Source: a virus. From it: DNA of 64,000 nt. The stretch spans positions 64,001-128,000 of the IMG/VR virus record IMGVR_UViG_3300012953_000001; one strand, given 5' to 3'. Made by a program: the position numbers and the translations under genes. Below, piece after piece: positions 21,541-62,064 of the stretch. Every line of letters begins with the position of its first letter. Position 1 is the first letter of the stretch. Under the pieces are notes generated by a model. That model was given only the letters and a program-made list of their open reading frames with translations. It had not been told where the DNA came from and made no database searches.

Positions 21541-21543
21541 TGA

Positions 21544-24500: not shown

Positions 24501-27500
24501 CTTTCGCGTTACGAATTTCCGCCAATACAGACTCAGCCACCTCAATCTTCTGGCCGTCAACCATTACGTAGACACCAGAGACCTCCTCAATAAGCTCCCA
24601 GTACTTCACATCTGTAAAGAGGGAGTACTTACTCCCAGTGGCTGGGTTTATGGCTAACTCGGCCCCTTTGGGGTAGAAATACGTATGTGACCTTAGATCC
24701 TTATCCTCGATAATAATCCGCCCATTCAGAGTGTCTGTGGGCTCCTCGATATGGATAATCTGCCCCTCTACCTCAGAATAGGGCAAGTCAAAGAAAGACT
24801 GGACAGCTAGTTGTAAGTTGTCGAAGTGTGGTCCACTCATGAACGCAAACCACACCGCCTTGGTTAAGGTAAGGTAGTCTACGTCAGCATCGTATTCATC
24901 CACCAGATCTCTTGGAAGACCTACGTACAGACCAAAGTTATTTTGTATGGTCTCCCAGTTATCGAAGTAAGAAAGCTCCGCCCAGAATCGATCAGGTCCC
25001 GGAGTGTAGGAACAGTACTTTGGTGCCCAGAAATACAACTTCTCAGCAGTGTGTCTTAGCGGTCTATCTAGTGTAAGTGACCCATCACTGTTGTATGAAA
25101 GGACTTGGTACTGCGCCGCATCACCCGCGCCTATGCATATGGTCTCTACATTTTCAATGCGGGGGTCAGAACCGATAAAACTGAGGTTTCCGTGTAGGTT
25201 GAACAGTGTTGATAGTGCTGTATGCACCATAAGCTTGCTATCAGGATAAACTCTGTTGCTTCCCGCCTCGCTACGCACTGTTCCGTGGTACCAGTCTTGA
25301 ATGTGAATACGGCTACCCTTGATATGGAAGTCGAGGTTCTCATTCATTTCAGGCTCTAGGGTGTCCACCCCAAGTCTCGGAATGCTTACAAGGTCTGTGG
25401 CCTTCCCTAGCTTCCTAGATAAGACAATCTTTTTGGGAGACAGCGTAATAGATACGAGGTCTTTTTGTTCCCAAAACTGCTCCTCCCCAGCAAGTATGGA
25501 CTGTGCAATTAGTCCAGACAACAAAGGCCCCCAGTCCACAAAGAGGCACTGTCCCCCGACCCCTAAAATGGTTAGTGGTACCTCAATCTCTGAGTTTGTG
25601 TACGGGTTTTCAAAGCAGAATAGTACGTAATCTCCAAGAGACAGGTCATATTGGCTAAGGTCTAGCTCGTCCCCAATTTTTACGTACGCAGACTGCTCTA
25701 CTTCAATATTTCTTGCTTCACGAAGATGGTCCCACTCACGCGCAAACCCATCGACTGTCTGCACCTCGATCTGTTTATCGCCAGTACCCTCAGATAGTTT
25801 CACAGCGTTCGCTAATAAATTAGGACCCACCTCAGCAATGGTGACAAGCTTCGGATTCTCGTCGTTCTCATCGAAAACACGAATTGTATCCAAACTGGGG
25901 TCAACAACATTGGCTAAAGGATACGTGGGGTCGTCAAAAACAACGCTCTTGGCAGGCGTTGTCTGCGTGAGTAGTGAGGTGTCCCGTGTAAAGTAGCCAC
26001 CCGTTCTTTGTGCCAGTACCTCGAATGATGGGAACGTGTCCTTACTAGACCCGGTTATAGCCCAAGAAAACTTCGTTGGGTCTACTGTGTCACTCCCAAT
26101 CACACCTACTAGGTCAATCACCTTTGGTGCGTGTAACGTGCTACGAAGGAGCGCCTTTCCTACTGACAGCGGGGCTGTAGCCGAATGCTCTATAACTGTG
26201 GCTGTATCAGTAGATGACCCGTAGATAACATCGGAAACATCCAGGTCTTTTACGGTGTAGTTTTCTGGATGAATTATTGTTGCTGTGTACCCTGTTGGTA
26301 CATCGATAGCGGCATCGTAATGCAACCACCGTCTCTGATACCTTCTAGATACGTCTTTTATGGCTTTGGCATAGTCATTCTGCCATGCAGTAACTAAGTC
26401 GGAAGATACCGCTTGTGTTAGAGCCGACCACACAGAAGTTATCTGCGCTTTATCGGGGACAAGATTCCAGAAGTCACTTAGGTATTTCCAAACATATTCG
26501 GAATTTGGTCTATGCCCAATAAGCTGACTTGTCACACCCGCCGTAAAAGTGGCCCTAGAAGGCAAGCTTTCCCTGGTACCGTTATCTACAGTGAGATACG
26601 CCACGTAAACCCCAGGCTTGTCTGGGATAATCACGGGATTCATCAGGTTAGATCCGCTCCCACCGGAGAACTGCACTTCTTGTGTTTTGAGTTTCTCTGT
26701 TCCAGCAGACCCGGCAATCGCTAAGTCTGCCCTAAAAAGAGCGGGGTAAGTCACCTCCTCAAAAGACACTTCATTAGTAGATGGGTCATTGTCTTGGTCC
26801 ACTGCCGCTGGCTGTGAGAAATTTATTACGGTTGATCCGCCCGAAATCTCAATGTTGTAGCCCGCTGCTAAATTATTAGAGAACGCAGTAACCAAGTCAC
26901 CAGCGGTTGTGGTGACCTCCCCATCGTTGTCTACACCCAGCACAATGGATAGAACCTTGCTCACAGTGTCCCAAGACATGCTTAGCAAAGAATTGTTGGG
27001 TCCCTTAGTGGCAGACACTTTGAAATCATTCGCCCACCTAGTGGGCTTGGTGTATGTCAAAACTACGGCGGTTAGAGGGTCCGGGTTGAGCGGGTCAATT
27101 GAGTTGGGGTCATCTATGATTATATCCGCAGTGGCGTACGACGCCCCCTGCATAATACAATTGCTCCCATCAGGGACTAAATCAAACTCCCAATTATAGA
27201 TAATATTCTTTCCACCGGGGTCGTAACTCTTTGCACCAATAAGTGTTTGTGACGTACCTATCTGGGTTTGATACACCGTGTAAGCATCAGCAATCGGTCT
27301 GTCTTCTGGAATCACTCTAGAGCTAGACAGCCGGATAGAGCCAAAAGAAAAAATTGATAGCTCTCCGTCTTCAAACTCTTGCTCTGAGTCCCAAGAAGAC
27401 AGTTTGAGCTTGGAGGGAGCGCTCGACTGCAAGTAAATGCAATCGTTTAGCTTGCCCGAAGATTTCTTAGCTGCGAGGTTGTACTTGAGAACTGCCTCTG

Positions 27501-28129: not shown

Positions 28130-31100
28130 TTATCTCGCCTTGTTGAGGATAATGCCTGCCAAATCCTCCATAATATGGAAGCGCTTGTTCAGGTAGATTA
28201 TATTTTCGTCCCGAACGATACGTACAACACGATTCTCATCATGAGTTAAGAACGCAACCTTCTGTGGGAACTCAACGTAGCCCACGCCTTTTCGAGCCAG
28301 CAACGCGGCAACGTCATAAAGCTCAAGCGGTTTGTTGGGATACAGGGTCTTGAAAAAATCCTCCAAAAGGCCGAAGACTTCTGAGTTCCCTAGCGAGGTG
28401 TCTCCATAGCTCAACCCGGCCAAAGGATACGCTGGGAAATAGTGTCGAGAGAGTGGGTTGTTGCATACAACGCGCAGGTCTCGGCTGAGTAAAAGTGATT
28501 GTACATCTTGTACCGGCTGTGACCTTTCGTAGGTCAAAGTTACCTCTGCGCCAGGAAGCGCATAGACATCTTTTAGGTCGCCCGATGTATCAGACAGCGC
28601 TATTGCTGTGGTCCTAATACTCGACTCCTCCCCAAGACTGTAGGAGTAGTTGCTATTCTTTACAACGACCTCGTACCCAAGAGATTTGTGATTGATCACA
28701 TCAAGCTGTTGCTGGTCGTCAACCAGCCCATCTTTCACATTGGGGTCATATGAGGTCAGTGTGATTTTAGCGGAGTACAGACCATACTCATTCGGGACCA
28801 TGTCCGTTGGGTACACGCGCTGGTACTTCTCACGCAACACATCCACGAACACCACTTCAGGGTCTCCTGCTACCGGAGTAGGTTGCCCATCTGAGTTAAC
28901 CACCGAGATACGCCACTGCGCATTCCCTGTGCCTGTGCTGGCGGAGTCTACGTACGTGACGGCTGTGACTGTGTAGGGGTCAAATAGCTCCCACCCTGCT
29001 GGGTAGAAGTTATTGTCCTGGTGGTCTAATGTCTGGCACCTAAGCTCCTCCAGAACACCAATGGTTCCCTCATTAAGCAACTGTACTGCTTTGCTGGAGG
29101 CTATCTGTAGATAGTAATGCTCTGCATTCGTGGGATCTTCCCAGATAGATGCTTTGAGGGAGTCCCCCACCTGACGGTTAATATCCGCCACTGCTTGCTC
29201 TAGCGTGGTCGGGTTTGGACCACTGAAGCTTACAGACCTTCGTTCCCCATCTATCAAGATGGTCAAGACCTTACCTGCGAGGGTAAGATTCTCATCCTCT
29301 AGGAATGGGTCTTGTCCATTAAACAGGTTGGAACGGAACTGCCGCGTCTTTATTACTAAACGATCTCCAACAGAAATCCCATGCTTAAAGAAGTTCTCGT
29401 CTTCACTGATGATAACCCCAGGCGTTGCCGGGTTGATCGTTAAATCAGACGATGCGTAATCTGTTGAGTAAAGCAGAGCGGACTCTAAGGGGGACGGCCT
29501 AAACTGGTATGTCTTTTTGTCGGCCACACTTTTGTAGCTGAAGATTGTATCGGGCCCTGCTTCAAAATACGTCGGGTCTCGGAATACAATCTCTGCACTA
29601 CCAATAGCAGGTCTGCCCAAGGTGAATCTGATGTTCTCAATACTGCTTAATAAGCCTTCAATGGGCCTATCCAAAATCAGTGTGTTGAGCGATGTGCCCC
29701 CAGCAGCATTATCTGTGTCCGTATGCGTAAACCCTTCTACATAAAAATACTTATCCGGGTCTTCAAGAGTATCAATCCGAACAACGTCATACTTGAGTAC
29801 GTTCCACTCAGTAACAAAGTCCTCGCCCTCATGCACAACTAAGTGTGCTTTGGGGTTAGCCGCGTTACCGTTTTCATCGGCACCAATGAGAATTGTAGGT
29901 TCCCATGTTCCTATGGGGTCTTCTCCGATTGATTCCTCATTGATCGGATCGTCATTCATCCCTGCGAACGAGCTAGAGATAATATCTACAGGGTTCTTGT
30001 ATGGAACCGAAACGCCCTCCGTGTCTCCTCCTGAGAGGGAAACAGCTTTAAGCCTAACCAGAGGTAATTCAACACCTGCGGCTTGCTTAGAGTAAACCCT
30101 GTAAGAAAGTCCCGAACCTGTTTCAGGAATAGACTCCTCCAGTACCAGAGTGTTTAGATTCTTACCAATAATCCGGTATTCCCCACGAGACGTATTAGAA
30201 TCGATAGAAATATAAAGAGACGTGTCCGAAGGGCTTGTTCCAAAGTTAAATCCAGAAGGACAGAAAACAGAGAAATCGTTCTTCTGCACAACTAGGTCGT
30301 TGCCTTGTTGGTGAACAACGAGCGGTTTATTAATGCTAGTTGTGCACCCAAACAACGCTCTAAACCTTAGGTTCGCATACGCAGCCCCGTCAGGAAATTT
30401 ACCGTCGATCCTCACACCACCATTTGGGGAAGACGACTGTGTATGAATAGCCCGGAAAAACCTCGGTTGCAGGTCGCCAGAAGGTGGGTCCAGAATTTCA
30501 ATAACTAGATTATCTAGCGAAATGTCCGTCCCTGGTGCGGGGTCATAGTGTTGAACAATAGCTGCCAGTAAATCACCGCTGTCAAAATGCGTTGGGTCAG
30601 TAACTGCGTCAATGCCACCATCAGAAGCAGACACAAGGACCTCGTGTGACGGAGGCGGGTCTTGCGGCGTAGGCGCTGGAAGCGCGTCCGGGTCTATCGC
30701 TTCTGGCTGTAGCAAAATAGGTGCAGTCGTTTGTTCAGCGACAGAGGTTGCCTTGATGTAGACATCGGTCATCCCGCCGATGTGAACCTCATTAGCCTTA
30801 ATCTCGAAATCTCCCCCAAACCAATCAGGGAATGGAGTACTGCCTGGAATACCAGAAACTACAATGCCAGAGTCTTCGGTATCCTCTGCCGCTTGCGCGT
30901 AAACCTGCACAATCTGATTGTTTAACAGGCGGTTTGTGGAGATAGGGTTTGCGTATGGAAACTCTACTCCACCGTAGTGCGCGGGACCAGATGGGTGTGG
31001 CACTAAAAACCCGGAGCTTCCCGTGTAATTAATGTAGGACATCTCATCCAGATCAAACTCTGTTACTGTCGGGTCTTGTGGATTTTTGAGTTTTGTCGCA

Positions 31101-34100
31101 CCGGGAACAACCGGTAACGAACAGCGCGTAAGAATATAATCGTCAAGAGTCCCATCTCCGTCTAAGTCTAGGGCCGTGCCTGCTACGGTACTTCCGGTAA
31201 GTGTGTAACGGGCCTTTGCGTAAGACATCTGGTCTGCCGAGTCATACTGCCCAGTGGGCCACACGTGCGCGTGACCTTTTCCTTGTGCGTCCATGCTGAT
31301 TGCTTCACCAGAAATACATGCTGCGGAGGCGGGTGCCCCCAAGCTTCTGTGAGCCTCTGTGAAGCCTTTGCCTAATCTAAGCCATAAAGCTCGTCGTTTA
31401 TTTACTTCACCATCATTCTCGCTCCACCTGTAGGTGGTGGCGTGGTTGTCGCCCGTATCAGGATCCCATCTGCTGCCACGGTAGTTACTATTTCCACGAG
31501 CAACAACGTGCCCAGTTGTTGTGCTCAGAGTATCTGTACCGTACATGCCCGGTCGTTTATAGGCAGGGGCATAGGCGAAATCATCATAAGAAACACCAAG
31601 GTCTCCACTGGGAGAAATGGTCTCTACTTTGTTCCGGTAGACAGACCAACAGACCTTAAACGGGTTTAGGTAATAGTTGTAGCCTATGGTAAACGCTGGT
31701 GACTCCCTGTTAGGGTCGTTCGCATTTAGTGCTTGGTTTGAGCCTCCGACCTGTGGGATCTCATTTGCGTTAAACTCAAGAGTAATAAGGCCCTGGGAGT
31801 ACTCTATCTCAGCCTTCTCAACCCAAAGACCGTTGACCTCCTCAAGCTCTAGAGCAAGATTAACTGCGTCCTGTAGGTTGGCTGCTCCCACAGCCGCTGC
31901 CATAGCATCAATAGGCGTAGGCCAAACCTGTGTCAGCCTCCCATCCCCAGTATCATCAAAAATATACCAAGTACCTGCGTTGTCAGGGTCTTTGTTAATG
32001 TCCCAGTAGTGAAGTCTTGCACTCCCTCTTTGTATGGGCGTGTTCGCCATTGTCAGAGTAAAGCGAGCCTCCATACCGTCAATGACAGGAACAGTCTCTA
32101 GAATCTCATGCCCAAAAAGGTCTAAGTCAGCGGCTTCGTCGTACACCTCGGGGTAGACATTACCTGCTAATAATACCGGGTCTGTAGCTGGATTATCCAC
32201 AGCTTGATCACACCCAACTTGAACTATCGGACCAAACCCGTAGTTGAACCCGCCTTCCAGTTCCCCGCTCTTGTTCCCTACCTGCGCGGCATACGGAGGA
32301 ATAACAGGCATTGCCTGATTCCAAGTGCCATTTGTAAATGGTGCAGCCGGTGTAGCGTAGTCTCTGTGCGCGAAGTAATACGAGGTGCCGTTATTTTGAG
32401 ACCCTGGCACGGTCGAATACACTCGAAACTTTCCGTCAGCCAGTGGCCCTAGTGGCTCTGCGGCCCAGTCCGTAGGACCTCCATAATTGGTAAGGGGATT
32501 TCCATCGAAGTCTGTTGCGGGATATCCGGGCTTCCCGTTAACCACATCAATTAGTTCCTGAATAAGATGCTGCATCTCTGGCGCGGTACCGTTTTCGAGG
32601 TTCCCCCCAGGAGGCAGTCCTTGTGCATTTTGTTTGCAGAAGAAGCCGTCATTATCGACCGCAATCATCTCACCATACTTGCCCCAGAGTTTGCTCGTGA
32701 TTGTGAACTGTACCTCTAAGCCCACGACCTGCACTTGCATGTCTACTTCAAAGCCGTTGATGGCCGCATTCATAGCGTCCCACTCTGCTTTTAATCCCGC
32801 AGCCCAGTCTCCAACGTAGGTGCCTCCATTATATATGGAAGCGCTATCGTCCACCTCCACAAACCCGCCCACTACATTTGGGTTTGCTGGGTCCGCAAGA
32901 GGACAAATGATCTTCATGATCCCGCCTGGGTAATCTCCCGGGGCTGATTCTGTGAGTAGTGCTGAATCTACAGTGAAGGTTTTGGAAGCAAGTCCTGCCC
33001 CTCCGTTCCAAGAGTGCTTAAGATCGATGTCTTGTTGCCACATCGTCCCATCAATCCACACCTCCATCACTGTGGATTCCCTGTTGGGGTTGGTCATCAC
33101 ATCAAAGTCTGGAATTTGCGGAACGTCCGTCGCCTCAATAACCGCACTAGCGCCCGGAGAAAACTGCGCGAAGTTGTACTCGTGAAGAGGGCCAAAGTCC
33201 AACCCCTCAACCCTTGTGCGCCAGGGAGTCCCTGCGCCAACCTTCTTCACGCGGCCCCAGCCCTGCCAGAGCATGTCGTCGTCTACATTCTGTAGCTTGC
33301 CATCAAAGCTCTCGCGGAAAACGGTACAAGCTACATGCTGCCCAGCAGTGACACCTCGGTCAGCCCATTTCGGCTGCGTATGGTGGAGGATGAGGTCTAC
33401 CTCTGCGGGATGGCTCAATACATTCCAAGAGGACGATTCAGGGATAATCGAAGGAAGGTCATTCATTACCTGAAGTGAGCATCCCGGATTTCTACCTACC
33501 TCTTCTTTTTCTTTTCCACCATAAACCAAGCTAGGATCTTGTGAGTCTTGCGTGTAGTACGGCGTACCATAGTCGTATAATCTTGGGCGTTCCCGCATCA
33601 TGGAGAACACCAAGTTTGGATCAAAATTGTACTCAAGCTTGCCCGGATAAACAGTCCTGTTCTTACTGACAAGGAAACTGTCTACCCTGCCAACACCAAG
33701 CTCTGTACTTGAGTAAAACCTCGTAAGAGGCCACATCTGCAATTTCTCTGGGAGCGTAAGCCCCAGTGGTTGCGCAGCAGCTGTCTGGCTAAACGTAGAG
33801 TCTTCAGTCCAAGTAATTAAGAAATCTCGCCCGGGGACAACAGACCCCGGAATGTCCTCAGGGACAAAGTTCGTTTTTACGTGATCGGTGAATGGTAGAT
33901 GGGCCCCTAGAACAATGTCAGAGCCCTCTTTCTCACCAATCATTTTAAACATGGAGCCTTGTGCAGATCTCCGGTTAAGCCCCATCTCTGGGTCGCTAGT
34001 GTGGAGAGTCCCGATAGCGGGTACTTCTCCGAGAATGTCCACTGGCTCTGGGTAGATATCAAAGTCTTTGAGCTTTATGTAAATAGCATAATCAGACCCA

Positions 34101-41355: not shown

Positions 41356-42093
41356 CTACCTTGATTTACTAAGCGTAGTTAAGTAGCTACCACCTCGGGA
41401 AGGTCCCATGGTGTTTTGTGATTGGGGGCCAGCTTTCCAGGCGTTATAGCTATTTTTCGCCATCTTTCCGCCGTAATACATGCTCGCAGCGCCAGCGCCT
41501 GTCATACCGACTCGACCAGCCTTGCCCCAGCCACCCAGACTTTTCCAGGGGCTAGACTTGAAGCTCATGCCTCCAAGAGATCTATTCCAGGGCATGCTTC
41601 CGCTGACAGCCGAACGTGCTCGATTACTAAAGCCTGCGCGAGCAGTTTGTGCAGCTTGTTGGGCTCGTCCAAGGCTCTGTCGCTCCAACATTCCTTTGGC
41701 ACCTCGCTGTGCGTAGGTCAGCCCTTTGTACGCGCCTGTGCCCGCCTTCTGCGCTGTACTGATGCCCTTGATAGTGCGACCAGCCATGTACGCTTTACGG
41801 CCAGCATTTGCTGCGCGAGCAGCCAAGACTCCGCCCCTAACAAGTCCACCAGCAACATTTAATCCGGGGATGAACATTGTAGCGGTAAGAGCCGCATCTA
41901 ATGGGTTGTCCTTGATATAGTTACCCACACTCTTAATGCCACCCCACGCCTTACGGCCCACACGTCTAGCCCACTGCCAAGCGACCTTCTCCATATAAGG
42001 GTCGATAGCAACAAGTTCTTCAGCAAAGGAACGCTGCATTCTATTTCTGGCAGCTACTTTCACCAGTGCATATCTTAACTGTTGATTATCCAT
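41356..42093 (-). CDS. Basic KxA-motif protein (putative internal virion/ejection protein)
   Basis: LVKVA and MEKVA motifs, then a cationic Gly/Ala-rich body with hydrophobic stretches; C-terminal RGGSYLTTLSK. Confidence 0.6.
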   Translation of the reverse strand: MDNQQLRYALVKVAARNRMQRSFAEELVAIDPYMEKVAWQWARRVGRKAWGGIKSVGNYIKDNPLDAALTATMFIPGLNVAGGLVRGGVLAARAANAGRKAYMAGRTIKGISTAQKAGTGAYKGLTYAQRGAKGMLERQSLGRAQQAAQTARAGFSNRARSAVSGSMPWNRSLGGMSFKSSPWKSLGGWGKAGRVGMTGAGAASMYYGGKMAKNSYNAWKAGPQSQNTMGPSRGGSYLTTLSKSR

Positions 42094-46345: not shown

Positions 46346-47242
46346 TTAGTCTTTGAGCAACGCATAGCCACCAAGTCCAAGTGCCGCAGGAACAGCTACC
46401 GCTTTGGCGGTGTCCATCATCTTTTTACGCTTGGCCCAGTTAGAGGCGAGTCTAGTCGCTCCACCAAGAAGCGCCGCAGCACCACCACCCTCTAATGCGG
46501 CCTTAGCCACTTCGGGTCCGTAAGCTTTTAAGTAGTCCATCGGAGCATCTGCAAACGATTTGCCTGATCTCTTCAGTGCGCGAGCTTTCCGAAGAAACTC
46601 AACCTCTTGGGCTGATCTATCGAAGGCACCCGGCACGAAATCCTTGCCCTCTTTCTTGGCCTGCTCCTTGGCAATGCGGTTCGTGTTGTATTTCTTTCCT
46701 AGAGCCTTACGTGCAGCTAGTCCTTCGGCCCCCTCACCAGCAAGAGTACGTAACTGGCGAAGTCTGTTAAGACCCATACCAAGACCACCAACGCCGCCAG
46801 CGCCCGCTGCGGTTCTACCCACGCCTCCCCATAAACTAAATGGGTTTTTGAAGGCTTGCTTCTCCATCCGATCACCGTAAGTGTTTTCGTAGAGAACAGC
46901 CGATGCCTGGGCAAGCCCACTATGCACGTAATGTGCAGAACTCTTTTTTGCCATGAACGGCGCTGTAGGTGCAGCGAGGGGTGCAGCGAGGGGTGCAGCG
47001 GGAGGTCTTCGGGCCATTGAGCCCATCCCGAACGGTTGCCTACGGGGTTTAGGTGCCCTAAGTGCCCCTGGGCCCATCTGCTTCATATTGTTGATGGCCT
47101 TTGCCACGTTCGGTGAGGGTTTGCGAGCGGGCGCGGCTCCGTACTGGCCCAGAACCGCAACCTTCTCAAGCATTGAGGCTACGCCTGCCGCTTTTTCCAT
47201 ACTCTTCATCGAGGTATCTAATCGTTTTAAGTTGTCCATCAT
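46346..47242 (-). CDS. Basic KxA-motif protein with a C-terminal Gly-zipper helix
   Basis: MEKAA, LEKVA and MEKQA motifs; ends AVAVPAALGLGGYALLKD. Confidence 0.6.
   Translation of the reverse strand: MMDNLKRLDTSMKSMEKAAGVASMLEKVAVLGQYGAAPARKPSPNVAKAINNMKQMGPGALRAPKPRRQPFGMGSMARRPPAAPLAAPLAAPTAPFMAKKSSAHYVHSGLAQASAVLYENTYGDRMEKQAFKNPFSLWGGVGRTAAGAGGVGGLGMGLNRLRQLRTLAGEGAEGLAARKALGKKYNTNRIAKEQAKKEGKDFVPGAFDRSAQEVEFLRKARALKRSGKSFADAPMDYLKAYGPEVAKAALEGGGAAALLGGATRLASNWAKRKKMMDTAKAVAVPAALGLGGYALLKD
46968..47000. repeat. 12-bp tandem repeat (about 2.7 copies) encoding AAPLAAPLAAP
   Basis: GGTGCAGCGAGG repeated in frame within the 46346-47242 gene. Confidence 0.8.
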
Positions 47243-48112
47243 TTACTCCGTAAGATGCCTCTGAAGTTTCTTTTTAATAGTGTTCTTCAGGCGACTAACT
47301 TGGTAATCGGGAATTTTCATTGCACGAGCAATAGTTCCCGTAGAGGACGTTTGAGGTTTGCCGTGTCCGGTCAAATACTCATATACCTCTCGTTCATTAC
47401 CCGTTAGTTCATACTTAAATAGGCGCAAAACCTCTTCAGATTTTGAAGGTGTTAACGCATACGGGTCCTCTTCGAACCCTTGAGAGAGCAAGTCGTTCCG
47501 TAGCTCGGCTTCCATCCTTCCGGTTTCAGCCATTGACCACCCGAGTCGCTCAGAAATTTCTTTAGTCAGAGGTGTCCTACCAAGATCTTCGGTAAGTTCA
47601 TCTCTGGCAGTTGTGAACAACTTGATCTTATAAACCCGATTCTCGGGGATACGACCAATATTCTGGTTCTCAACAATAAATCGTTTGGCCTTGTCTAAAT
47701 AACGAAAGACATAGGTACCGAGAGACCCCTTAGAGGGATCATATGAGCGTAAGGCATCTACAAAGCGTAGCTGAAACTCTGACTCAATAGCTGAGTCGGG
47801 AATCATCTTTACCTTACCCTTGTAGACATTGACCTTAGACCTGATCATTGGACGGAAGCTTTTGAGGAGAGGTCGGAGGTCTTCCGGCCTCTCCCCATTG
47901 GCTTTCCAATTATTCCACATCGCAAGCTCTCGACTCTTCTTATCATCTAAGTTGTCTAGAGCATTGAATGTGGCAAGGTTAGTCTCCGTGGCTTCCTCAG
48001 CATCCCTGGTGTGCTGTTTTACGGATACAACTTTCCCATTAGTTCGCCGTGGGTGTGCTCTTACTTGAGTACTCCCTGCGTACTTGAGAAATTCGGATAC
48101 TGGATCAGCCAC
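47243..48112 (-). CDS. Sigma-70 family RNA polymerase sigma factor (SigB/FliA-like) with an atypical N-terminal tag
   Basis: Region 2 (LLKSFRPMI...FVDALRSYDPSKGSLGTYV), RIPE, region 3 (LGRTPLTKEISERLGWS) and region 4 (TIARAMKIPDYQVSRLKNTIKKKL). GTG 48112 is better spaced from AAAGGT than ATG 48121. Confidence 0.9.
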   Translation of the reverse strand: MADPVSEFLKYAGSTQVRAHPRRTNGKVVSVKQHTRDAEEATETNLATFNALDNLDDKKSRELAMWNNWKANGERPEDLRPLLKSFRPMIRSKVNVYKGKVKMIPDSAIESEFQLRFVDALRSYDPSKGSLGTYVFRYLDKAKRFIVENQNIGRIPENRVYKIKLFTTARDELTEDLGRTPLTKEISERLGWSMAETGRMEAELRNDLLSQGFEEDPYALTPSKSEEVLRLFKYELTGNEREVYEYLTGHGKPQTSSTGTIARAMKIPDYQVSRLKNTIKKKLQRHLTE

Positions 48113-55710: not shown

Positions 55711-57132
55711 TCATGTTTTGAGACCATACCTATCTCCTGCATCATAATTATCGGGCACAGCGATACCGACCTCTTTCATCCTCGATTCAATCGCAGACGT
55801 AGCGGTCGAGCGCCCTTTGTTAAAGTGCTCATTCTCATGAGCGTACGCTAAAAGTTCATCAAGCTCTCCCCTGCCTAGTGCTTCTGTTAGCTCAGAAACA
55901 GTGGAGCCTGCTAACTCAGTCAACTTGATTCGCTGTTCGGTCGAAGGGGTCGTAACCTCTTCCGGGGCTACCTTATTAAGAGAGCCGCCCAAACGCGAAA
56001 AATTTCGAAGTAACGCTTTTTGAGCCGAAGCAGCCGTTGAAGCAAGGTCTGCGAGTTTCTCAGCTGTGGTCGTTTCTTCTTCAGACGCAGAAGACCTAAT
56101 AGCCTCAAGATCCGCTGCTCTCTTGGCACGAGCCTCCTCAGCCTGGGCAACGTATGAGGCATTGTATGCCTCAGCGAACTTTGCTGACGCGACTTCAACC
56201 GTATCGGAACTATCCCAATCATCTCCTACCGCTGCGGCCATAAGGGCCACGCGACCAGCGGGAAGCGCCTCAGCTACCGTACTAACAGTAGTGGTGCGTT
56301 CTTCCGCTTCCGATGGCAGAGTTATCTCCCTAGGTTGGAATCCAAAAGGTGGTATGGGGGTGTTTATAATACCCTCCGCACCAAAGGACCTAAGAGTCTT
56401 TCCTGTGGAAGCTGGTTTGGCGAACCGATCACTACCGCCCGGAGTTGCCATCCTCTCAATCCTAGCAGGAGGCTCAAACCCAGCAGCGGAAAAAGCGGCA
56501 CCGCGCCTTTTGGTACTGAGATCCAAGAAGTCCTGGTACTGCGACCAGTTGATTCCTAATCTGCTTTCGATGTTCTCCGCCGTAAGAGACCCTTTGTCTA
56601 AAGCCTTAGCCATCCCAGTGGTCTCTGGGCCAAAGCCTTGAGAAGCAAGGTGCGCTTGTACCTCAGGGATAAGTTGTAGGGCAGGCGCTCTACCAAAGAC
56701 TAAAAACCTGTACCCGTTGGCATCAAGCTCTCCTGCATCACGCATAGTTGCGGCAACCACCGCAGTCATCTCGCGGCCACCAAGAGCTTCCCGCGCATCA
56801 TCGACACCGCTGTAAGTGTCCGGGTCATTTAGTACTGCTAATGCAGTTATGCGCTCAGCCTGGAATCCGGTCTCCAGCTTTGCGGCAAGGCCTTCATCAG
56901 ACTCAGATAACGTCAGTATCGTAGATACAATGCTGGACTCAAGCTCTAAACCAGAGACTTCATAGGCCGATGCAATAGCTGCTGCGTTCGGTGATGTGGA
57001 CTCCGAGATAAGCGACGTGAACACCTCAGAGGCGTAAGTCAACCTCGATTCCGTCGTCAAGGTGTCACCCACTGCCGTAGCCACGGAAACTAAATTCGCA
57101 GCACTGGATACTGCACCTTCATCAATCGCCAT
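55711..57132 (-). CDS. Acidic Ala-rich hypothetical protein, probably virion-associated
   Basis: 473 aa, GGAG RBS; C-terminal LDELLAYAHENEHFNKGRSTATSAIESR motif. Confidence 0.55.
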   Translation of the reverse strand: MAIDEGAVSSAANLVSVATAVGDTLTTESRLTYASEVFTSLISESTSPNAAAIASAYEVSGLELESSIVSTILTLSESDEGLAAKLETGFQAERITALAVLNDPDTYSGVDDAREALGGREMTAVVAATMRDAGELDANGYRFLVFGRAPALQLIPEVQAHLASQGFGPETTGMAKALDKGSLTAENIESRLGINWSQYQDFLDLSTKRRGAAFSAAGFEPPARIERMATPGGSDRFAKPASTGKTLRSFGAEGIINTPIPPFGFQPREITLPSEAEERTTTVSTVAEALPAGRVALMAAAVGDDWDSSDTVEVASAKFAEAYNASYVAQAEEARAKRAADLEAIRSSASEEETTTAEKLADLASTAASAQKALLRNFSRLGGSLNKVAPEEVTTPSTEQRIKLTELAGSTVSELTEALGRGELDELLAYAHENEHFNKGRSTATSAIESRMKEVGIAVPDNYDAGDRYGLKT

Positions 57133-57153: not shown

Positions 57154-57336
57154 CTAAGCGTTACGCTCTTCCTGAACCTGCTTACGCAACTCTTTGCACT
57201 TAGTCGCAACCGTTTGTAGGACTTTTCGCACTCTTCCGCCAGCAGCATTGTTACCGTCTCCATGCTTGTTGGCATCAACAAGGGATTCGGCTAATACATG
57301 AATCATGTCTTCCATCTGTTTTTCTACGCTCTTCAT
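57154..57336 (-). CDS. Histone H1-like (Hc1-family) small DNA-binding protein
   Basis: DANKHGDGNNAAGGRVRKVLQ...KELRKQVQE matches the Hc1 core GNKAAxxRxR; AGGAG RBS. Confidence 0.75.
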   Translation of the reverse strand: MKSVEKQMEDMIHVLAESLVDANKHGDGNNAAGGRVRKVLQTVATKCKELRKQVQEERNA

Positions 57337-57337
57337 A

Positions 57338-58006
57338 CTATCCTCCTATTTTCGTGTTAGGCATTCGAGCAAAACCAATTAACCTAGTTTCTCTATCAAG
57401 ATCGTGGGTTAATCGTTTTACGTGGGAGGGAAATCTCCCAACGTTTCCTTCTATTGTTTCTATCACACCGTGCTGATAATTCTCAATAATTCCAATGTGG
57501 CCTTGCCAAGACCCAGGCTTTCCTCGATCCCAGCATACGATATCGCCTGCTGCTGGTATCGTTACCTCAGACCCCGCTTCTTTGATATACTTGTACAGCG
57601 CTTTCGCTCCGTGACTAGTTTTGAAGGGAAGGTCAACGCCGAGACTATCCGCTGCAACCATACAGCAGTAACTAACGAAACTAGCACACCAAGCACCATC
57701 ATCATCAGGATTGCCGTCGTCAGGAATTCCTTTATAGCGAGCGATATGCTCCCCAGAGTTGTTACCACCAATTTCACCATTGCCGATCTCCTTGATAGCT
57801 GTTTCTAAAGCCATGAGACCGAGATTACTTGTGGGACCACTATTACCAAACATATCTAATAATAATGACTGCTGGGTTTGTGGGCCGCAGTAACCATCAA
57901 CAGACAAGCCCTTGCTTTCCTGCCAATGTTTAACGAGATGCATTATCTGCTCTTGGGTAAACAGCCCAAGCTCGATTTGGTGTTTATTATATGATTCTGC
58001 GCTCAT
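57338..58006 (-). CDS. Modular endolysin: N-terminal PG-binding domain plus CHAP amidase/peptidase
   Basis: VKHWQESKGLSVDGYCGPQT (PG_binding_1); AWCASFVSY, GHIGII and TIEGN (CHAP motifs). Confidence 0.9.
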   Translation of the reverse strand: MSAESYNKHQIELGLFTQEQIMHLVKHWQESKGLSVDGYCGPQTQQSLLLDMFGNSGPTSNLGLMALETAIKEIGNGEIGGNNSGEHIARYKGIPDDGNPDDDGAWCASFVSYCCMVAADSLGVDLPFKTSHGAKALYKYIKEAGSEVTIPAAGDIVCWDRGKPGSWQGHIGIIENYQHGVIETIEGNVGRFPSHVKRLTHDLDRETRLIGFARMPNTKIGG

Positions 58007-58015
58007 ACGTATCCT

Positions 58016-58810
58016 TTAAAAATTCATCCTGAATAAGTTGCCCTGCCCAGTGGGGCTAAATGGCAATACGCCTGTATTCTTTTGTCCAAAAGGGTTGAAC
58101 TTTTGTCCAGCCCTAGGGGCTCTTGGAGTAGCCGGTGGCTTAGCCGGTCTTGTGATGCCTGAATTTGGGTACATGGGCGTTCTCGCCCTCATCAAACTGT
58201 TTGGCCCTGCGGCACTAGTCGCATTGGGTGACGGGGGCGTAGGCATCTTGGGGATCTTCAGCTTTAGCTTCGAGACAAGCGAAAGATTTTTACTCCAAGG
58301 GTGGGGTCCAGCCCTTACCGGAGTATGCGTTGGTCCCGTTGGTCTATTGAGTACGTTTGGTGCTGACTTACCTACCACTCTAGTTGGTTGACTGTATCCC
58401 CCAGGGGTAGTCTTGGTCCCAGATAAGGGTGGGGAAAGCATGGAGCCCTGTAGCAACTCCCCAGGACCACGCATACCAACTGGTTTAGATGAGTCCATGT
58501 ACCTACTCTGCCTATTAGTAGCTACTGCTTTTGCTTTTTGGTGCTTAGCTTGGATCTTATTCTGGATCCCTGTCCCTAATGCACCACCCTTACTACCGTA
58601 ATTGCCTGGAGCTTTAGGCATGTCAAATGCTTTGCCTCCGGGATGCGGCTTAGGGTTCTTAGTGCCATCCTTTACCACAGGTCTTGGGCGAGCTTTTCTT
58701 GGGGAATACGCGACCTTCTCCAACAGACCGAGGACATAATTGTCCGCAATCTTGGCTACAGCTATTTTTTCAAGCTCATCCCGCATTGACCTAAGAATAG
58801 ACACGTTCAT
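58016..58810 (-). CDS. Pro/Lys-rich disordered KxA-motif protein
   Basis: MRDELEKIAVAKIADNYVLGLLEKVA gives three motifs in 35 aa; the remainder is low complexity. Confidence 0.6.
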   Translation of the reverse strand: MNVSILRSMRDELEKIAVAKIADNYVLGLLEKVAYSPRKARPRPVVKDGTKNPKPHPGGKAFDMPKAPGNYGSKGGALGTGIQNKIQAKHQKAKAVATNRQSRYMDSSKPVGMRGPGELLQGSMLSPPLSGTKTTPGGYSQPTRVVGKSAPNVLNRPTGPTHTPVRAGPHPWSKNLSLVSKLKLKIPKMPTPPSPNATSAAGPNSLMRARTPMYPNSGITRPAKPPATPRAPRAGQKFNPFGQKNTGVLPFSPTGQGNLFRMNF

Positions 58811-58815
58811 TGCAA

Positions 58816-59733
58816 TTAACCCTTTTGCATTTTTCGGGCTAATTCAAGCAGTTTATCCTGAACACCCTTCTTACCGCCCAACTCACCACGAGTGCTTAGT
58901 GGAACCGAGATAGACCCGTCTCGCTTCATACGGTCAATCGCTTTATCTCCAAAGCGCTTTCTCCAAGCCTTCTCCATTGCGGGAGACAGCTTCGAAGCCG
59001 ATGTGTCTGGCATAAAGAACGCGCCCATTGGGTTTCTTTTGCCTCGCTTCGGTTGCATATTAATAATGTCTTTCGCCCCCATCATCTTATGCAGTCTTCG
59101 TCTACCAAAGAAGCCAAGGGTTGGAGTATCTTTAATGCCCTTCTTCAAGGCTGATACGGCTAACATCTGTGGCCCCATCCCCACTAATTTTGCCTTGAGC
59201 ATCGGGCTCAACGTGGACTCGCCCTTTCTAGCAGCCTTAGCCCCCAACGCAGCGGCAGCAACATTACCAGAAGCCCCAGAGAGATAAGTCGTGTAAGCCC
59301 ACAACAGATCCCTTCGCGCCTTCTTGTATGTTTTTGGTGCAATACCTTTGAGCTTCTTTAGAGCCTTAAGTCCATGGTACGTGGCCAAGAATTCTTCTGC
59401 CAGTCTGGGTGCTTCCCCTGCGGCTTGAACTGCGCCATCTTGAACCATGTGTTTTCGTAGTTCTTTCTTACTTGGGGCCTTTCCAACGCCACGAGAATAC
59501 CGACGATACTTGTTAATTAGTTGAGAGACCCCTGGGCCTGCTCCATAACCAAGCATCCGAAGCTTTCGAACAGTTTTGCTTGAGCCTCTTAACGTCTTTG
59601 CATGCCCAAGCTCATGTGCAAGGATAGATGCAGGCGCTCTATGAGGAGTGCCTTTTCGTACAAGAGTCTCTAGCCCTCTACCCATCATCTGTTTTAGTGC
59701 GCTCTTCGCAGCATACTTCTCTAATGCGTTCAT
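58816..59733 (-). CDS. Zincin metallopeptidase (YugP/Zn_peptidase_2-like) with a MNALEKYAAK leader
   Basis: ILAHELGHA, LAEEFLAT and KARRDLLWAYTTYL parallel YugP AHEVGHA / VEFDAS / ARKVLxAAALTYV. Confidence 0.65.
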   Translation of the reverse strand: MNALEKYAAKSALKQMMGRGLETLVRKGTPHRAPASILAHELGHAKTLRGSSKTVRKLRMLGYGAGPGVSQLINKYRRYSRGVGKAPSKKELRKHMVQDGAVQAAGEAPRLAEEFLATYHGLKALKKLKGIAPKTYKKARRDLLWAYTTYLSGASGNVAAAALGAKAARKGESTLSPMLKAKLVGMGPQMLAVSALKKGIKDTPTLGFFGRRRLHKMMGAKDIINMQPKRGKRNPMGAFFMPDTSASKLSPAMEKAWRKRFGDKAIDRMKRDGSISVPLSTRGELGGKKGVQDKLLELARKMQKG

Positions 59734-60281
59734 TAAAATGTCCCCTGTATATTACCGGTAAAGTAGGGTTTTCGTTGGTTCCGACCTGCTCCTACTGGCA
59801 ACCGCGCCCCAATATTACCACGAATATTCTTTGATAATCTTCCGCCCCAACCCATGTTTAAGGTGCTTGGTCGTCCACCCGACAAGGTGGTCCCAACGCT
59901 AAGTGGACCGGCTTTCACGCCTAAGTTAGTCATAGACTTCTTCGGCATTACATCTCGCCAAGTCATTCCGACCGGCGCTCCGCTTCTGGCTAAACTTCGA
60001 TTGATAGAGAGACGCTGCAAGTTATCAGTTGCGCCCTGACCCCTAGCCATAATGCCTTGTAATCCCTTAGTAGGTCTTTCCATTTTGCTAAGAGAGGTCA
60101 TCGGGTTGCTTGAATGAGAAGCTGTCACCTTAACGGGTGACTTAGAGTACGCCTTGCCAATCCCAGAAAGGGTGGCCCCAACAGACGAACTAACTGTTGG
60201 CTTAGCCAAAATCTTCTTAGCTATCTCGGCTAACTTGGTAGTTAGCTTTCGCTTGGACGCGTATTTCTCTAAGGCGTTCAC
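59733..60281 (-). CDS. Basic protein with a (M)NALEKYASK leader
   Basis: GTG 60281 with AAAGGGG upstream, just after the previous stop at 60284; in frame with the 60341 ORF. Confidence 0.6.
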   Translation of the reverse strand: MNALEKYASKRKLTTKLAEIAKKILAKPTVSSSVGATLSGIGKAYSKSPVKVTASHSSNPMTSLSKMERPTKGLQGIMARGQGATDNLQRLSINRSLARSGAPVGMTWRDVMPKKSMTNLGVKAGPLSVGTTLSGGRPSTLNMGWGGRLSKNIRGNIGARLPVGAGRNQRKPYFTGNIQGTF

Positions 60282-60283
60282 GG

Positions 60284-60916
60284 TTATGACCCCTTTACCC
60301 ATTTCTGGTTGTCTTTGTCTTTCGTCTTGCTTGGGCTCCACTTGACCTTATCCGCCCAATAAGCCGCACTCAAACGACCCTTGGAAATGTTCTTGCCGTG
60401 GCGGGACTTAAACGCCTTGCGTTGACCAGCGGTCTGGTTGGTCTTCACGCCCTGCTGCCCAAAGCGGATAGTCTTTACTTGGTCACCCTCTTTAGCAACA
60501 ACGATGTGAGACTTAGTAGGGTGATTAGGTGTGCGCTTAGGCTTGTTGTAGCCAGAAACACCAGCACGTTCTAGCCGTGGGTCTCTCGAAGCGGCAATCT
60601 TAGCCCAAGCCTTCTTGGTCTTCTCGTCTTTAGGGACCACTCTCTCACCCTTATGCACACGAGCGTATGGCTTGCCCTTCTTGTCGGTCAAATAGCCATC
60701 CTTCTTCACGGGTCCGCCCTTGGAATAACCAGCTAGTCCGCTACCCTTCATCATCCGTTGGGTGAAATTGGAGTTCCCCATCATGGCGATTTTCAGCTTG
60801 TCACTGACAGCCTGAAGACGTTCGGCTTGACTTTTATGCATCTTGGAAGCCCCGTGAAGTTCCTTAACAATCTTCTTGAGCTTCTTCTTAGCGGCATATT
60901 TCTCTAGCGATCTCAT
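60284..60916 (-). CDS. Modular basic protein: MRSLEKYAAK leader, GG...HKGERV module and RFGQQG...SAAYWA domain
   Basis: ATG 60916 overlaps the previous TGA (ATGA). The C-terminal DPRLERAGVSGYNKPKRTPNHPTKSH...RFGQQG...RH...SAAYWA domain is one I recognise as a standalone small protein in marine phages. Confidence 0.7.
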   Translation of the reverse strand: MRSLEKYAAKKKLKKIVKELHGASKMHKSQAERLQAVSDKLKIAMMGNSNFTQRMMKGSGLAGYSKGGPVKKDGYLTDKKGKPYARVHKGERVVPKDEKTKKAWAKIAASRDPRLERAGVSGYNKPKRTPNHPTKSHIVVAKEGDQVKTIRFGQQGVKTNQTAGQRKAFKSRHGKNISKGRLSAAYWADKVKWSPSKTKDKDNQKWVKGS

Positions 60917-62064
60917 ATAGACCACCGGTCATTCTTTAGGCCTTCCTTCGTTCTCGGCGTAAGGTTTTGCCTATTGATCTGGGGTGTTGGGTAATACTCT
61001 CGGTATGGCATGGTTCCTCCGGAAGGAGTAGTCTTGCCAGTCTTACCGCCTAATCCGCCTTTGGCTTTAGGAGATTTGAGGAAAGCGCCCTTTGCTGCCT
61101 TAAGCCTATCGGTGAGACGGTTCTTGTCCCATGCTTTTTTGGCTTCCCAGCCCAGTACCCCTCCAGCAGCAGCGATTGCTGGTTTAGAGTTAACAAGCCT
61201 TGCAGCCATGCCACCCATTCTTCCGTAGTTTCTTCCAGCACGAGCAGCGAAAGTAGCCCCTCTGTTACCCCAAGTGGTAACAGGTGCTTTGATCCCAGTG
61301 CGTCCTCGCTTGAATCCCTCTTGCAAGCCTTTGCCAGCAGCCTGGGGGATTTGGCGGAGTCCAGTGGCCCCTGAGCGAACAGCAGCCTTTAGTCCTCTCC
61401 CTAATAAAGCCAAGTTTGCTGTCTTCACAGCGTCAACGCTCCCAGCCTTGCTCAACATAGTTAAGTAGGATCCTCCACGGACTTGCGAAGGGGGCGTAGG
61501 CGGCTTTATTGTTTTCGCCGCCGCGCTCAATGCCCCAGATTGCGCCTTATGTATCCAGCTACTCTTAACCTTTATTGGTTTGCCTGTGGTGTCAGGTTGT
61601 CCATTGCTTCCTTTAGGTAATTTGTATGCACCATAAGAGGACGCTTGCAGCGTGAGCGGGTGACCGCCCTGGGCGATTTTGCGTAATGCTGAATTTAGTT
61701 TCACTTTAGCTCCTGGAAAGACTGCGTCTTTGACCGGGTTTGGGTGCTCCCAGACCCTCTTCAGGGTTTTCTGGTAGCGCCCTTCTGGTTTTCTTGGTGT
61801 AGAGGATATTCCGCCACCACCTTTCATAATATCCAGGTAACTTCCCCCACGCGCCTGCCCACGTTGCGCACCACCGCTGCTCCCTTTGGAAGCTGAGGCT
61901 ACCGCCCTACTTAAGATCTTTGACGTGTCTTTTGTCTCTGGGTACTTCATTGGAGCGCCAGAGTACGGGTCTAACCCTGACTGCCTAAAAATTTCGAAGT
62001 CAGACTTGGCTAGCTTCTCAAAAGCATCGTTAATATATGCTAAGTAATACTGCTTAGTACTCAT
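60913..62064 (-). CDS. Basic KxA-motif protein with two RGGSYL motifs
   Basis: FEKLA, LRKIA and VKTA motifs; RGGSYLDIM and RGGSYLTML. Confidence 0.6.
   Translation of the reverse strand: MSTKQYYLAYINDAFEKLAKSDFEIFRQSGLDPYSGAPMKYPETKDTSKILSRAVASASKGSSGGAQRGQARGGSYLDIMKGGGGISSTPRKPEGRYQKTLKRVWEHPNPVKDAVFPGAKVKLNSALRKIAQGGHPLTLQASSYGAYKLPKGSNGQPDTTGKPIKVKSSWIHKAQSGALSAAAKTIKPPTPPSQVRGGSYLTMLSKAGSVDAVKTANLALLGRGLKAAVRSGATGLRQIPQAAGKGLQEGFKRGRTGIKAPVTTWGNRGATFAARAGRNYGRMGGMAARLVNSKPAIAAAGGVLGWEAKKAWDKNRLTDRLKAAKGAFLKSPKAKGGLGGKTGKTTPSGGTMPYREYYPTPQINRQNLTPRTKEGLKNDRWSI

Follow-up and report, generated by a model that had tools for sequence, protein, structure and literature searches.

A shared N-terminal leader on otherwise unrelated basic proteins of an uncultured marine phage, a candidate capsid-targeting tag

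The DNA analyzed here, referred to as the window, comprises 64,000 nucleotides (nt) and corresponds to bases 64001 to 128000 of a phage genome that is complete, 178,429 bp long, and bounded by direct terminal repeats (IMG/VR record IMGVR_UViG_3300012953_000001). The source is an uncultured marine phage of the lineage of Arash-like marine phages. Between 55.7 and 64 kb of the window every gene is carried by the minus strand, and three adjacent genes of this region, designated B, C, and D, encode proteins that begin with almost the same peptide, M(N/R)(A/S)LEKYA(A/S)K, hereafter the leader (Table 1). The initial annotation had placed the three N termini at 60916 (ATG), 60281 (GTG), and 59733 (ATG), and re-reading of the sequence located them exactly there. 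All three starts are well placed: the ATG of gene B overlaps the TGA stop codon of the upstream gene A (ATGA) and is preceded by GGTGG, the GTG of gene C lies 2 nt past the stop codon of gene B with AAGGGG 8 nt upstream, and the ATG of gene D overlaps the stop codon of gene C (TAATG). The longest-open reading frame (ORF) track starts gene B at GTG 60925, which adds 3 amino acids (aa), and gene C at GTG 60341, which adds 20 aa and would create a 58-nt overlap with gene B. Because these starts lie upstream, two of the three leaders are hidden, as had been pointed out. Public gene calls, too, extend upstream of the leader, as in P0076, an ortholog of gene C, and in P0023.

Table 1. Leader-bearing genes, leaders, and motif-bearing or neighboring genes in the window
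Feature	Position in window	Strand	Description
Gene B	60284..60916	−	210 aa; first residues MRSLEKYAAKKKL, including MRSLEKYAAK; net charge +38
Leader of B	60866..60916	−	Codons 1-17
Gene C	59733..60281	−	182 aa; GTG start; (M)NALEKYASKRKL, including (M)NALEKYASK; net charge +25, isoelectric point (pI) 11.7
Leader of C	60231..60281	−	Codons 1-17
Gene D	58816..59733	−	305 aa; first residues MNALEKYAAKSAL, including MNALEKYAAK; net charge +45
Leader of D	59683..59733	−	Codons 1-17
Gene A	60913..62064	−	383 aa, basic (+47); degenerate motif NDAFEKLAKS, residues 12-21, nt about 62002-62031
Gene E	58016..58810	−	264 aa, basic (+33); degenerate motifs ELEKIAVAK and LLEKVAYS, residues 11-37, nt about 58700-58780
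Peptidoglycan-binding and CHAP cell-wall hydrolase	57338..58006	−	Neighbor; synteny anchor of the cassette in relatives
Basic protein	46346..47242	−	About 297 aa; N-terminal motifs SMEKAAG and MLEKVAV
Gene	47243..48112	−	N terminus with FLKYAG (hydrophobic-x-K-Y-A-G)
Basic protein	41356..42093	−	245 aa; YMEKVAW at residues 33-39

The leader is not restricted to these three genes. A six-frame translation of the whole genome contains seven occurrences of the pattern [ASG]LEK[YFLI]A, and all seven directly follow the start codon of a minus-strand gene, a placement far beyond chance. The four further copies are located at genome positions 18446, 18275, 9660, and 9122, and the leader-bearing genes sit inside virion gene blocks or operons. 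The copy at 18275, which has its own ATG with GGGGG upstream, shares the reading frame of the ORF starting at 18446 and lies within it, forming a nested pair in which a 136-aa ORF is contained within a 193-aa ORF. An alignment of 26 different leaders, taken from the present genome and five IMG/VR relatives, revealed that M1, L4, K6, Y7, and L13 are invariant, that E5, A8, A9, and K10 are at least 90% conserved, and that L17 is present in 22 of the 26 sequences, yielding the consensus MNALEKYAAK[KR]xLxxxL. Since conservation reaches L13 and L17, the element spans approximately 17 residues and not 10. Hence, the 10-aa leader on three genes reported in the initial annotation is real, but both its number and its length were understated. 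Many of the copies contain a second (I/V)EKLA at residues 15 to 19.

The synonymous differences first quoted for the three leaders proved to be real and characterize the whole alignment. Among all pairs of the 26 leaders from the six genomes, codons 2 to 10 contain 1288 synonymous versus 305 nonsynonymous differences, codons 11 to 20 contain 667 versus 2241, and codons 21 to 30 contain 183 versus 2972. The invariant L4 is encoded by TTA, CTA, TTG, and CTG, A8 by all four Ala codons, and L13 by six Leu codons, while the bases upstream of the leaders are not conserved. As the differences in codons 2 to 10 are mostly synonymous, selection acts on the peptide, and the peptide-level selection proposed for the three genes is therefore well supported. 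Readings of the leader as a secretion signal or a lipoprotein signal were ruled out on inspection, as it has neither a hydrophobic core nor a Cys residue.

An exact scan of IMG/VR with a degenerate DNA pattern of the first eight codons returned 11 loci, mostly on phage contigs of 173 to 181 kb, and each match heads a different basic ORF. When up to two mismatches were allowed, five such genomes contained 11, 3, 6, 3, and 3 copies, all on the coding strand; the reversed control pattern had no matches in the same five genomes. A protein profile of the leader (30 columns), which as a positive control gave 7, 11, 2, and 7 matches in genomes G000 to G003, respectively, was then searched exhaustively against 1.84 billion cluster representatives. 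At an E value of ≤1e-3, this search yielded 84 proteins, each representing a cluster at 50% identity, among which part of the source sequences of the profile recur. In about 75 of the 84, the starts assigned by independent gene callers put the leader at residue 1. The proteins are 42 to 325 aa long (median, 140 aa) and every one of them is net positive, with a median charge of +0.14 per residue. A word-indexed protein search with residues 1 to 40 of a leader protein found one ortholog only, using a method that needs more shared words than a 10-mer offers.

About ten ORFs among the profile matches carry two or three leaders in frame, and a start codon is preserved in nearly every internal copy (10 Met, 1 Val, and 1 Leu). 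Such multi-leader ORFs are found at positions 17865-18446 of the genome (L013:9865-10446, minus strand), at L042:5548-6153 (plus strand), and in P0003, P0004, P0005, and P0074; their internal copies retain ATG or GTG together with a Shine-Dalgarno-like purine run upstream. They could represent nested cistrons without an intervening stop codon or, alternatively, polyproteins that are cut at the leader.

The bodies that follow the leader, here referred to as cargo, are unrelated, as the initial annotation had stated. BLASTP comparison of the bodies in a nine-sequence database found no significant pairwise similarity (best E value of 0.039), though their basic composition is shared, with net charges of +25 to +45 and pI values of 10.5 to 11.7 for the products of genes B, C, and D. 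Searches against PHROGs and Pfam gave no match for genes A, C, D, and E, for most of the neighboring virion genes, or for the remaining leader genes of the genome, gene C being without any family match. The C-terminal domain of gene B has a match to phrog_7595 and a weaker one to phrog_220 ("minor head protein and DNA pilot").

The cargo set also differs between close relatives, whose capsid proteins are 81 to 91% identical and which hold 2, 7, and 11 copies of the leader. The cassette beside the hydrolase contains nine leader genes within 3 kb in G001, about seven in G003, and three in G004. The CHAP hydrolase itself is 60 to 66% identical to its counterparts in the close relatives, and a 138-aa gene of the window is 51 to 62% identical. 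Gene A matches at 42% over 69 aa only, gene B at 71% over a 73-aa module only, and of gene E solely the motif-bearing N terminus is kept in relative G002. For gene D, the cassette loci of four relatives, the IMG/VR scan, and a tblastn search against GenBank phages yielded no match. The ortholog of gene C in G001 is 38% identical and begins with MNVLEKYAAK. In the same relative, the 73-aa module of gene B stands behind a leader of its own, and the reading frame continues into another leader with a different body. Collectively, cargo bodies are unrecognizable or mosaic between close relatives, that is, hypervariable. Unlike the surrounding cargo genes, a 60-aa gene located downstream of the hydrolase (window 57154-57336, minus strand) is kept in G001 and G004 with 47 to 51% identity.

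Gene D has eight metagenomic homologs besides its own record. The sequence AHE[LY]GHAK, which contains an HExxH motif (AHELGHAK at residues 39 to 46 of D), is invariant among the nine sequences, as are the downstream residues E107, E113, and E114 within region 104 to 114. Because of the invariant HExxH and the conserved downstream Glu residues, the product of gene D is a candidate metallopeptidase cargo that may be packaged. Comparison with Pfam Zn_peptidase_2 (YugP-type zinc peptidase) scored 13.8 bits for gene D, below the cutoff of 27, and gave weak matches for five of the nine family members (best E value of 0.0026). The AlphaFold2 model of D is helical with a predicted local distance difference test (pLDDT) score of 78; the leader begins a long helix of residues 3 to 28, and a fold search for a possible zincin gave generic helical bundles only (Z ≤ 7.5), with no clear PDB match. 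Many of the tagged proteins (genome 17865-18275 and many of P0001 to P0084) carry C-terminal hydrophobic segments rich in Gly and Ala, for example, GFAGLAGLAALGIGAKAV and LAIGGAAVGGAAGL. Their resemblance to glycine-zipper membrane helices suggests membrane-active ejection proteins.

The following head genes lie outside the window. TerL is encoded at genome positions 30210-31853 (phrog_675; E value of 2e-74), and a 561-aa protein encoded at 25605-27290 (L013:17605-19290, minus strand) matches phrog_18299, annotated as head maturation protease, with an E value of 1.8e-9. Pfam Peptidase_S77 (PF03420) had no match in the genome at an E value of ≤1, the Pfam scan of the 561-aa protein was empty, and a PDB sequence search with it returned nothing useful. 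Residues 1 to 330 were modeled with AlphaFold2 with a pLDDT of 83 to 93 in the core. Aligned by VIA-align, the model matched T4 gp21 (5jbl_A) with a Z score of 12.2 and a root mean square deviation of 3.0 Å over 148 of 165 residues, followed by the proteases of varicella-zoster virus (Z of 6.5) and human cytomegalovirus (Z of 4.9), and the top three Foldseek matches were chains of 5jbl. The protein is thus predicted to be a prohead protease of the gp21/assemblin fold, with which the phage would mature its head. H104 and S160 are invariant in 34 homologs, and 1440 homologs were found in metagenomes, many on contigs of 156 to 207 kb. Protein H (window 55711-57132), which had a weak and probably spurious match to a protease PHROG, was rejected as the protease.

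Residues 168 to 186 of the protease form an inserted invariant CxxC...CxH that looks like a zinc ribbon; T4 gp21 is not known to have an insert of this type. Intein and LAGLIDADG homing-endonuclease domains occur in the protease homologs P0135, P0140, P0158, P0178, P0181, P0185, and P0191, and also in TerL of a distant relative (L055:4254-7199). The capsid protein is encoded at genome positions 21616-22821 on the minus strand; its PHROG match is weak, and it is 27.5% identical to the protein annotated as the capsid protein in Salmonella phage Arash (E value of 2e-27). An antisense ORF of 504 to 544 aa at 21472-22986 (plus strand) is longer than the capsid gene and would be picked by a longest-ORF caller.

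The core of the leader recurs in these head proteins. In the predicted proteome, the pattern [LFMI][EDQ]K[YFILVMQ]A was found 24 times, compared with 2.4 ± 1.5 times in shuffled proteins, and 19 of the 24 occurrences lie within the first 35 residues, a 25-fold enrichment. An N-terminal strict motif is present in 12 of 23 strongly basic proteins versus 5 of 137 others (odds ratio of 29), and these statistics are optimistic, as the patterns were set after examples had been seen. The positional pattern is plain nevertheless. The acidic scaffold-like protein adjoining the protease (genome 24904-25512; pI of 4.1) contains five copies of hydrophobic-x-K-[TV]-A, and the next acidic protein contains IEKLAG and VEKLAS. 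In the protease itself, MAKVAS is kept directly after the folded core across the 34 homologs, inside a low-confidence or disordered stretch of the model, and is followed by a linker of very variable length and a second motif, L(K/R)EK(M/L)A. The N-terminal region of the capsid protein contains GKEKIAAL in all five close relatives. The corresponding segment of Arash reads LVKEAGAA, and that of a distant relative whose protease is 52% identical reads QVKVAS; further head-module proteins of this distant relative start with LQKLAT, LLKMAA, or LMKTAA. The family-wide core is therefore hydrophobic-x-K-x-A plus a small residue, and Glu is specific to the subclade.

The pattern matches the known features of the capsid-targeting sequence (CTS) of phage T4, and a capsid-loading and processing tag was therefore rated as the most likely function of the leader. 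By analogy, and with moderate confidence, we favor a leader that targets internal or ejected proteins to the capsid and marks them for processing, much as the T4 CTS does. The leader would be an amphipathic N-terminal helix of approximately 17 residues that directs unrelated, highly basic small proteins into a scaffold-filled prohead, in which the cargo would coassemble with the acidic scaffold core. The gp21-fold protease would then cut at or beside the hydrophobic-E-K-x-A core of the tag, and also at the counterparts of this motif in the scaffold, in the linker of the protease, and in the N terminus of the capsid protein, and the basic cargo would remain with the packaged DNA and be ejected into the host. 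Because the tag alone would be needed for loading, the bodies would be free to swap and diverge, giving rise to a hypervariable cargo cassette. Packaging, cleavage, the exact scissile bond, and ejection are steps that we infer. The leader could be cut after Ala8, which is favored by the family-wide K-x-A plus small residue and would resemble the herpesvirus assemblin sites, or after Glu5, which would fit A-L-E and the Glu specificity of known gp21 homologs.

Several observations weigh against this assignment. If the cut fell at the motif (residues 4 to 9), the mature protein would retain K10, L13, and L17, which are conserved, whereas T4 removes its whole CTS (PMC9026906). Known gp21-type proteases, namely those of T4, phiKZ, and SPN3US, cut after Glu (PMC9026906), yet the conserved core here is K-x-A and Glu is lost in distant relatives; therefore, either the chemistry of the protease is different or the motif is a binding site and not a cleavage site. 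Salmonella phage Arash and Vibrio phage D69, two distant relatives that have been cultured, gave no match to the leader profile, and the post hoc choice of motif patterns, mentioned above, counts on the same side. Virion mass spectrometry of Arash, which reported 116 proteins including ribonucleotide reductases, cannot discriminate true cargo (PMC10585845); RNA polymerase, a hydrolase, and a sigma factor, annotated as gp10, were among the proteins reported in these virions (PMC10585845).

The strongest competitor of the capsid-loading tag is a permanent, uncleaved docking or oligomerization helix that would tether the basic proteins to one shared partner (for instance, the portal, an inner body, DNA, or the inner face of the capsid), with K-x-A as the binding motif. 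Conservation beyond the motif up to L13 and L17 is consistent with such a helix, and so is the model of D, in which residues 3 to 28 form one continuous helix joined to the body. The loss of Glu in distant relatives would be odd for a gp21-type site, and the start codons retained by internal leader copies suggest that a free N terminus matters. Against docking, the motif occurs five times in an acidic scaffold-like protein and flanks a hypervariable disordered linker of the protease, a layout typical of cleavage sites such as those of T4 gp22 and the release sites of herpesvirus assemblin (PMC9026906). On balance, we regard a docking helix as rather unlikely. It is improbable that the tag acts only after ejection, as a membrane- or host factor-targeting, degradation, or export signal in the host, with capsid loading depending on something else. 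Gly/Ala-rich stretches in several cargo bodies do look membrane active, and gene B weakly matches a "DNA pilot" PHROG, but the leader has no hydrophobic core or lipobox, and its core motif is common to the scaffold, the protease, and the capsid protein, which never leave the assembling head.

Two further explanations would deny the peptide any address function. If the tagged genes were diverged paralogs of one ancestral gene, the N terminus would simply be the slowest-evolving remnant. All the bodies do share an unusual composition, being basic and rich in Gly, Ala, Ser, and Pro, and the nested pair of ORFs in the genome might be expected on such grounds. However, the bodies are clearly different modules with no pairwise similarity, comprising the phrog_7595 domain in B, the helical HExxH protein in D, and low-complexity proteins, and across the 84 clusters near invariance gives way to no conservation at residue 18, a sharp drop that gradual divergence would not give. 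Common ancestry is accordingly given even less credit than a signal acting in the host. We give the least credit to a nucleic acid-level feature with a functionless peptide, whether a translation initiation region, a regulatory RNA target, or a block of recombination homology. The variable gene content of the cassettes among relatives and the in-frame tandem copies, which look like products of recombination at the leader, would suit it. Yet nearly all wobble positions vary while the amino acids are fixed, which largely refutes this explanation: the wobble variation rules out selection for RNA pairing, the identity is too low for efficient homologous recombination, and the regions upstream of the leaders are not conserved.

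The capsid-loading tag may be part of a broader scheme, which we put forward tentatively and hold to be possible but doubtful. According to it, a large family of uncultured marine phages with a virion RNA polymerase would use one head-assembly code, hydrophobic-x-K-x-A, that both sends proteins to the prohead and designates them as substrates of a gp21-fold protease of non-Glu specificity, and in one subclade the code would have become a fixed 17-residue plug-in label, any gene behind which is loaded and injected. If true, it would explain why at least 84 unrelated cargo families exist, why single ORFs contain several leaders in frame, and why enzymes such as the HExxH protein are tagged, and the label would index an unexplored repertoire of injected host-takeover and antidefense effectors.

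The leader string was absent from the 8.4 million papers covered by a full-text search, and the T4 CTS is the known precedent for the function proposed by analogy. Should the tag be a loading signal, it would be the second clear portable capsid-targeting peptide after that of the T-even phages, and it would come from an unrelated, abundant, and uncultured marine lineage. Injected phage proteins are where antidefense and host-takeover functions tend to sit, and the leader profile would then provide a sequence handle for listing such proteins from metagenomes, with 84 distinct cargo families already found. In addition, the leader corrects gene starts that longest-ORF callers misplace, points to a gp21-fold protease with a putative non-Glu specificity, and offers a candidate means of bringing foreign proteins into phage capsids, a use already made of the T4 CTS.

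The T4 CTS comprises 10 residues at the N terminus of various basic internal proteins, including IPI, IPII, and IPIII (Mullaney & Black 1996; reviewed in PMC9026906 and PMC3012670), and is needed for core loading and removed by gp21 (PMC9026906). Positions 4 and 7 of the peptide are important for targeting, and related phages differ in their cargo (PMC9026906, PMC3012670). The initial annotation had likened the three leaders to this system, and the likeness holds in several respects. In both cases, a short N-terminal peptide heads small, basic, otherwise dissimilar proteins, here encoded in virion operons; a protease of the gp21 fold is present, here predicted, with acidic scaffold-like genes next to it; the tag persists in related phages whose cargo is hypervariable; and the hydrophobic positions 4 and 7, key in T4, correspond to the invariant L4 and Y7. 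Copies of the core motif are also present in the scaffold-like protein, in the linker of the protease, and at the N terminus of the capsid protein. The likeness does not extend to the length of the conserved element (about 17 aa versus 10 in T4) or to the likely cleavage chemistry, the putative site being hydrophobic-E-K-x-A in the middle of the tag as opposed to L/I-x-E at its end. The phage lineage is different, each genome carries 7 canonical and about 10 degenerate copies, and some single ORFs contain in-frame tandem leaders. The leader also differs in sequence from the T4 CTS. The general PHROG and Pfam scans of A to E, which included no direct comparison with the T4 CTS, turned up no T4 internal proteins.

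Phages phiKZ, 201phi2-1, and SPN3US resemble the present family in being large, in carrying an RNA polymerase in the virion along with numerous internal or ejected proteins, and in encoding a diverged gp21-like protease (gp175 and gp245 there) that cuts a short motif in many head proteins (PMC9026906, PMC5694885, PMC10052503), as predicted here. Unlike the leader, the propeptides of these phages are long and do not form a common leader, their motif is S/A/G-x-E with the cut after Glu, and their inner-body proteins are paralogous families. The proteases of herpesviruses belong to the same fold superfamily, and the release and maturation consensus of assemblin is Ala-Ser, cut between the two residues. 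The x-K-V-A-S found directly after the protease core resembles such a release site, with Ala followed by a small residue; unlike in assemblin, the Lys occupies a different subsite, and cleavage after Ala is putative in this phage. Encapsulins load their cargo into a shell of the HK97 fold by means of a short conserved peptide on diverse proteins, which is usually C terminal and binds the shell protein directly. The Dar proteins of phage P1 are reportedly targeted through N-terminal regions with the aid of helper proteins. With both of these systems, the leader would share the principle of a short peptide that loads diverse cargo into a protein shell.

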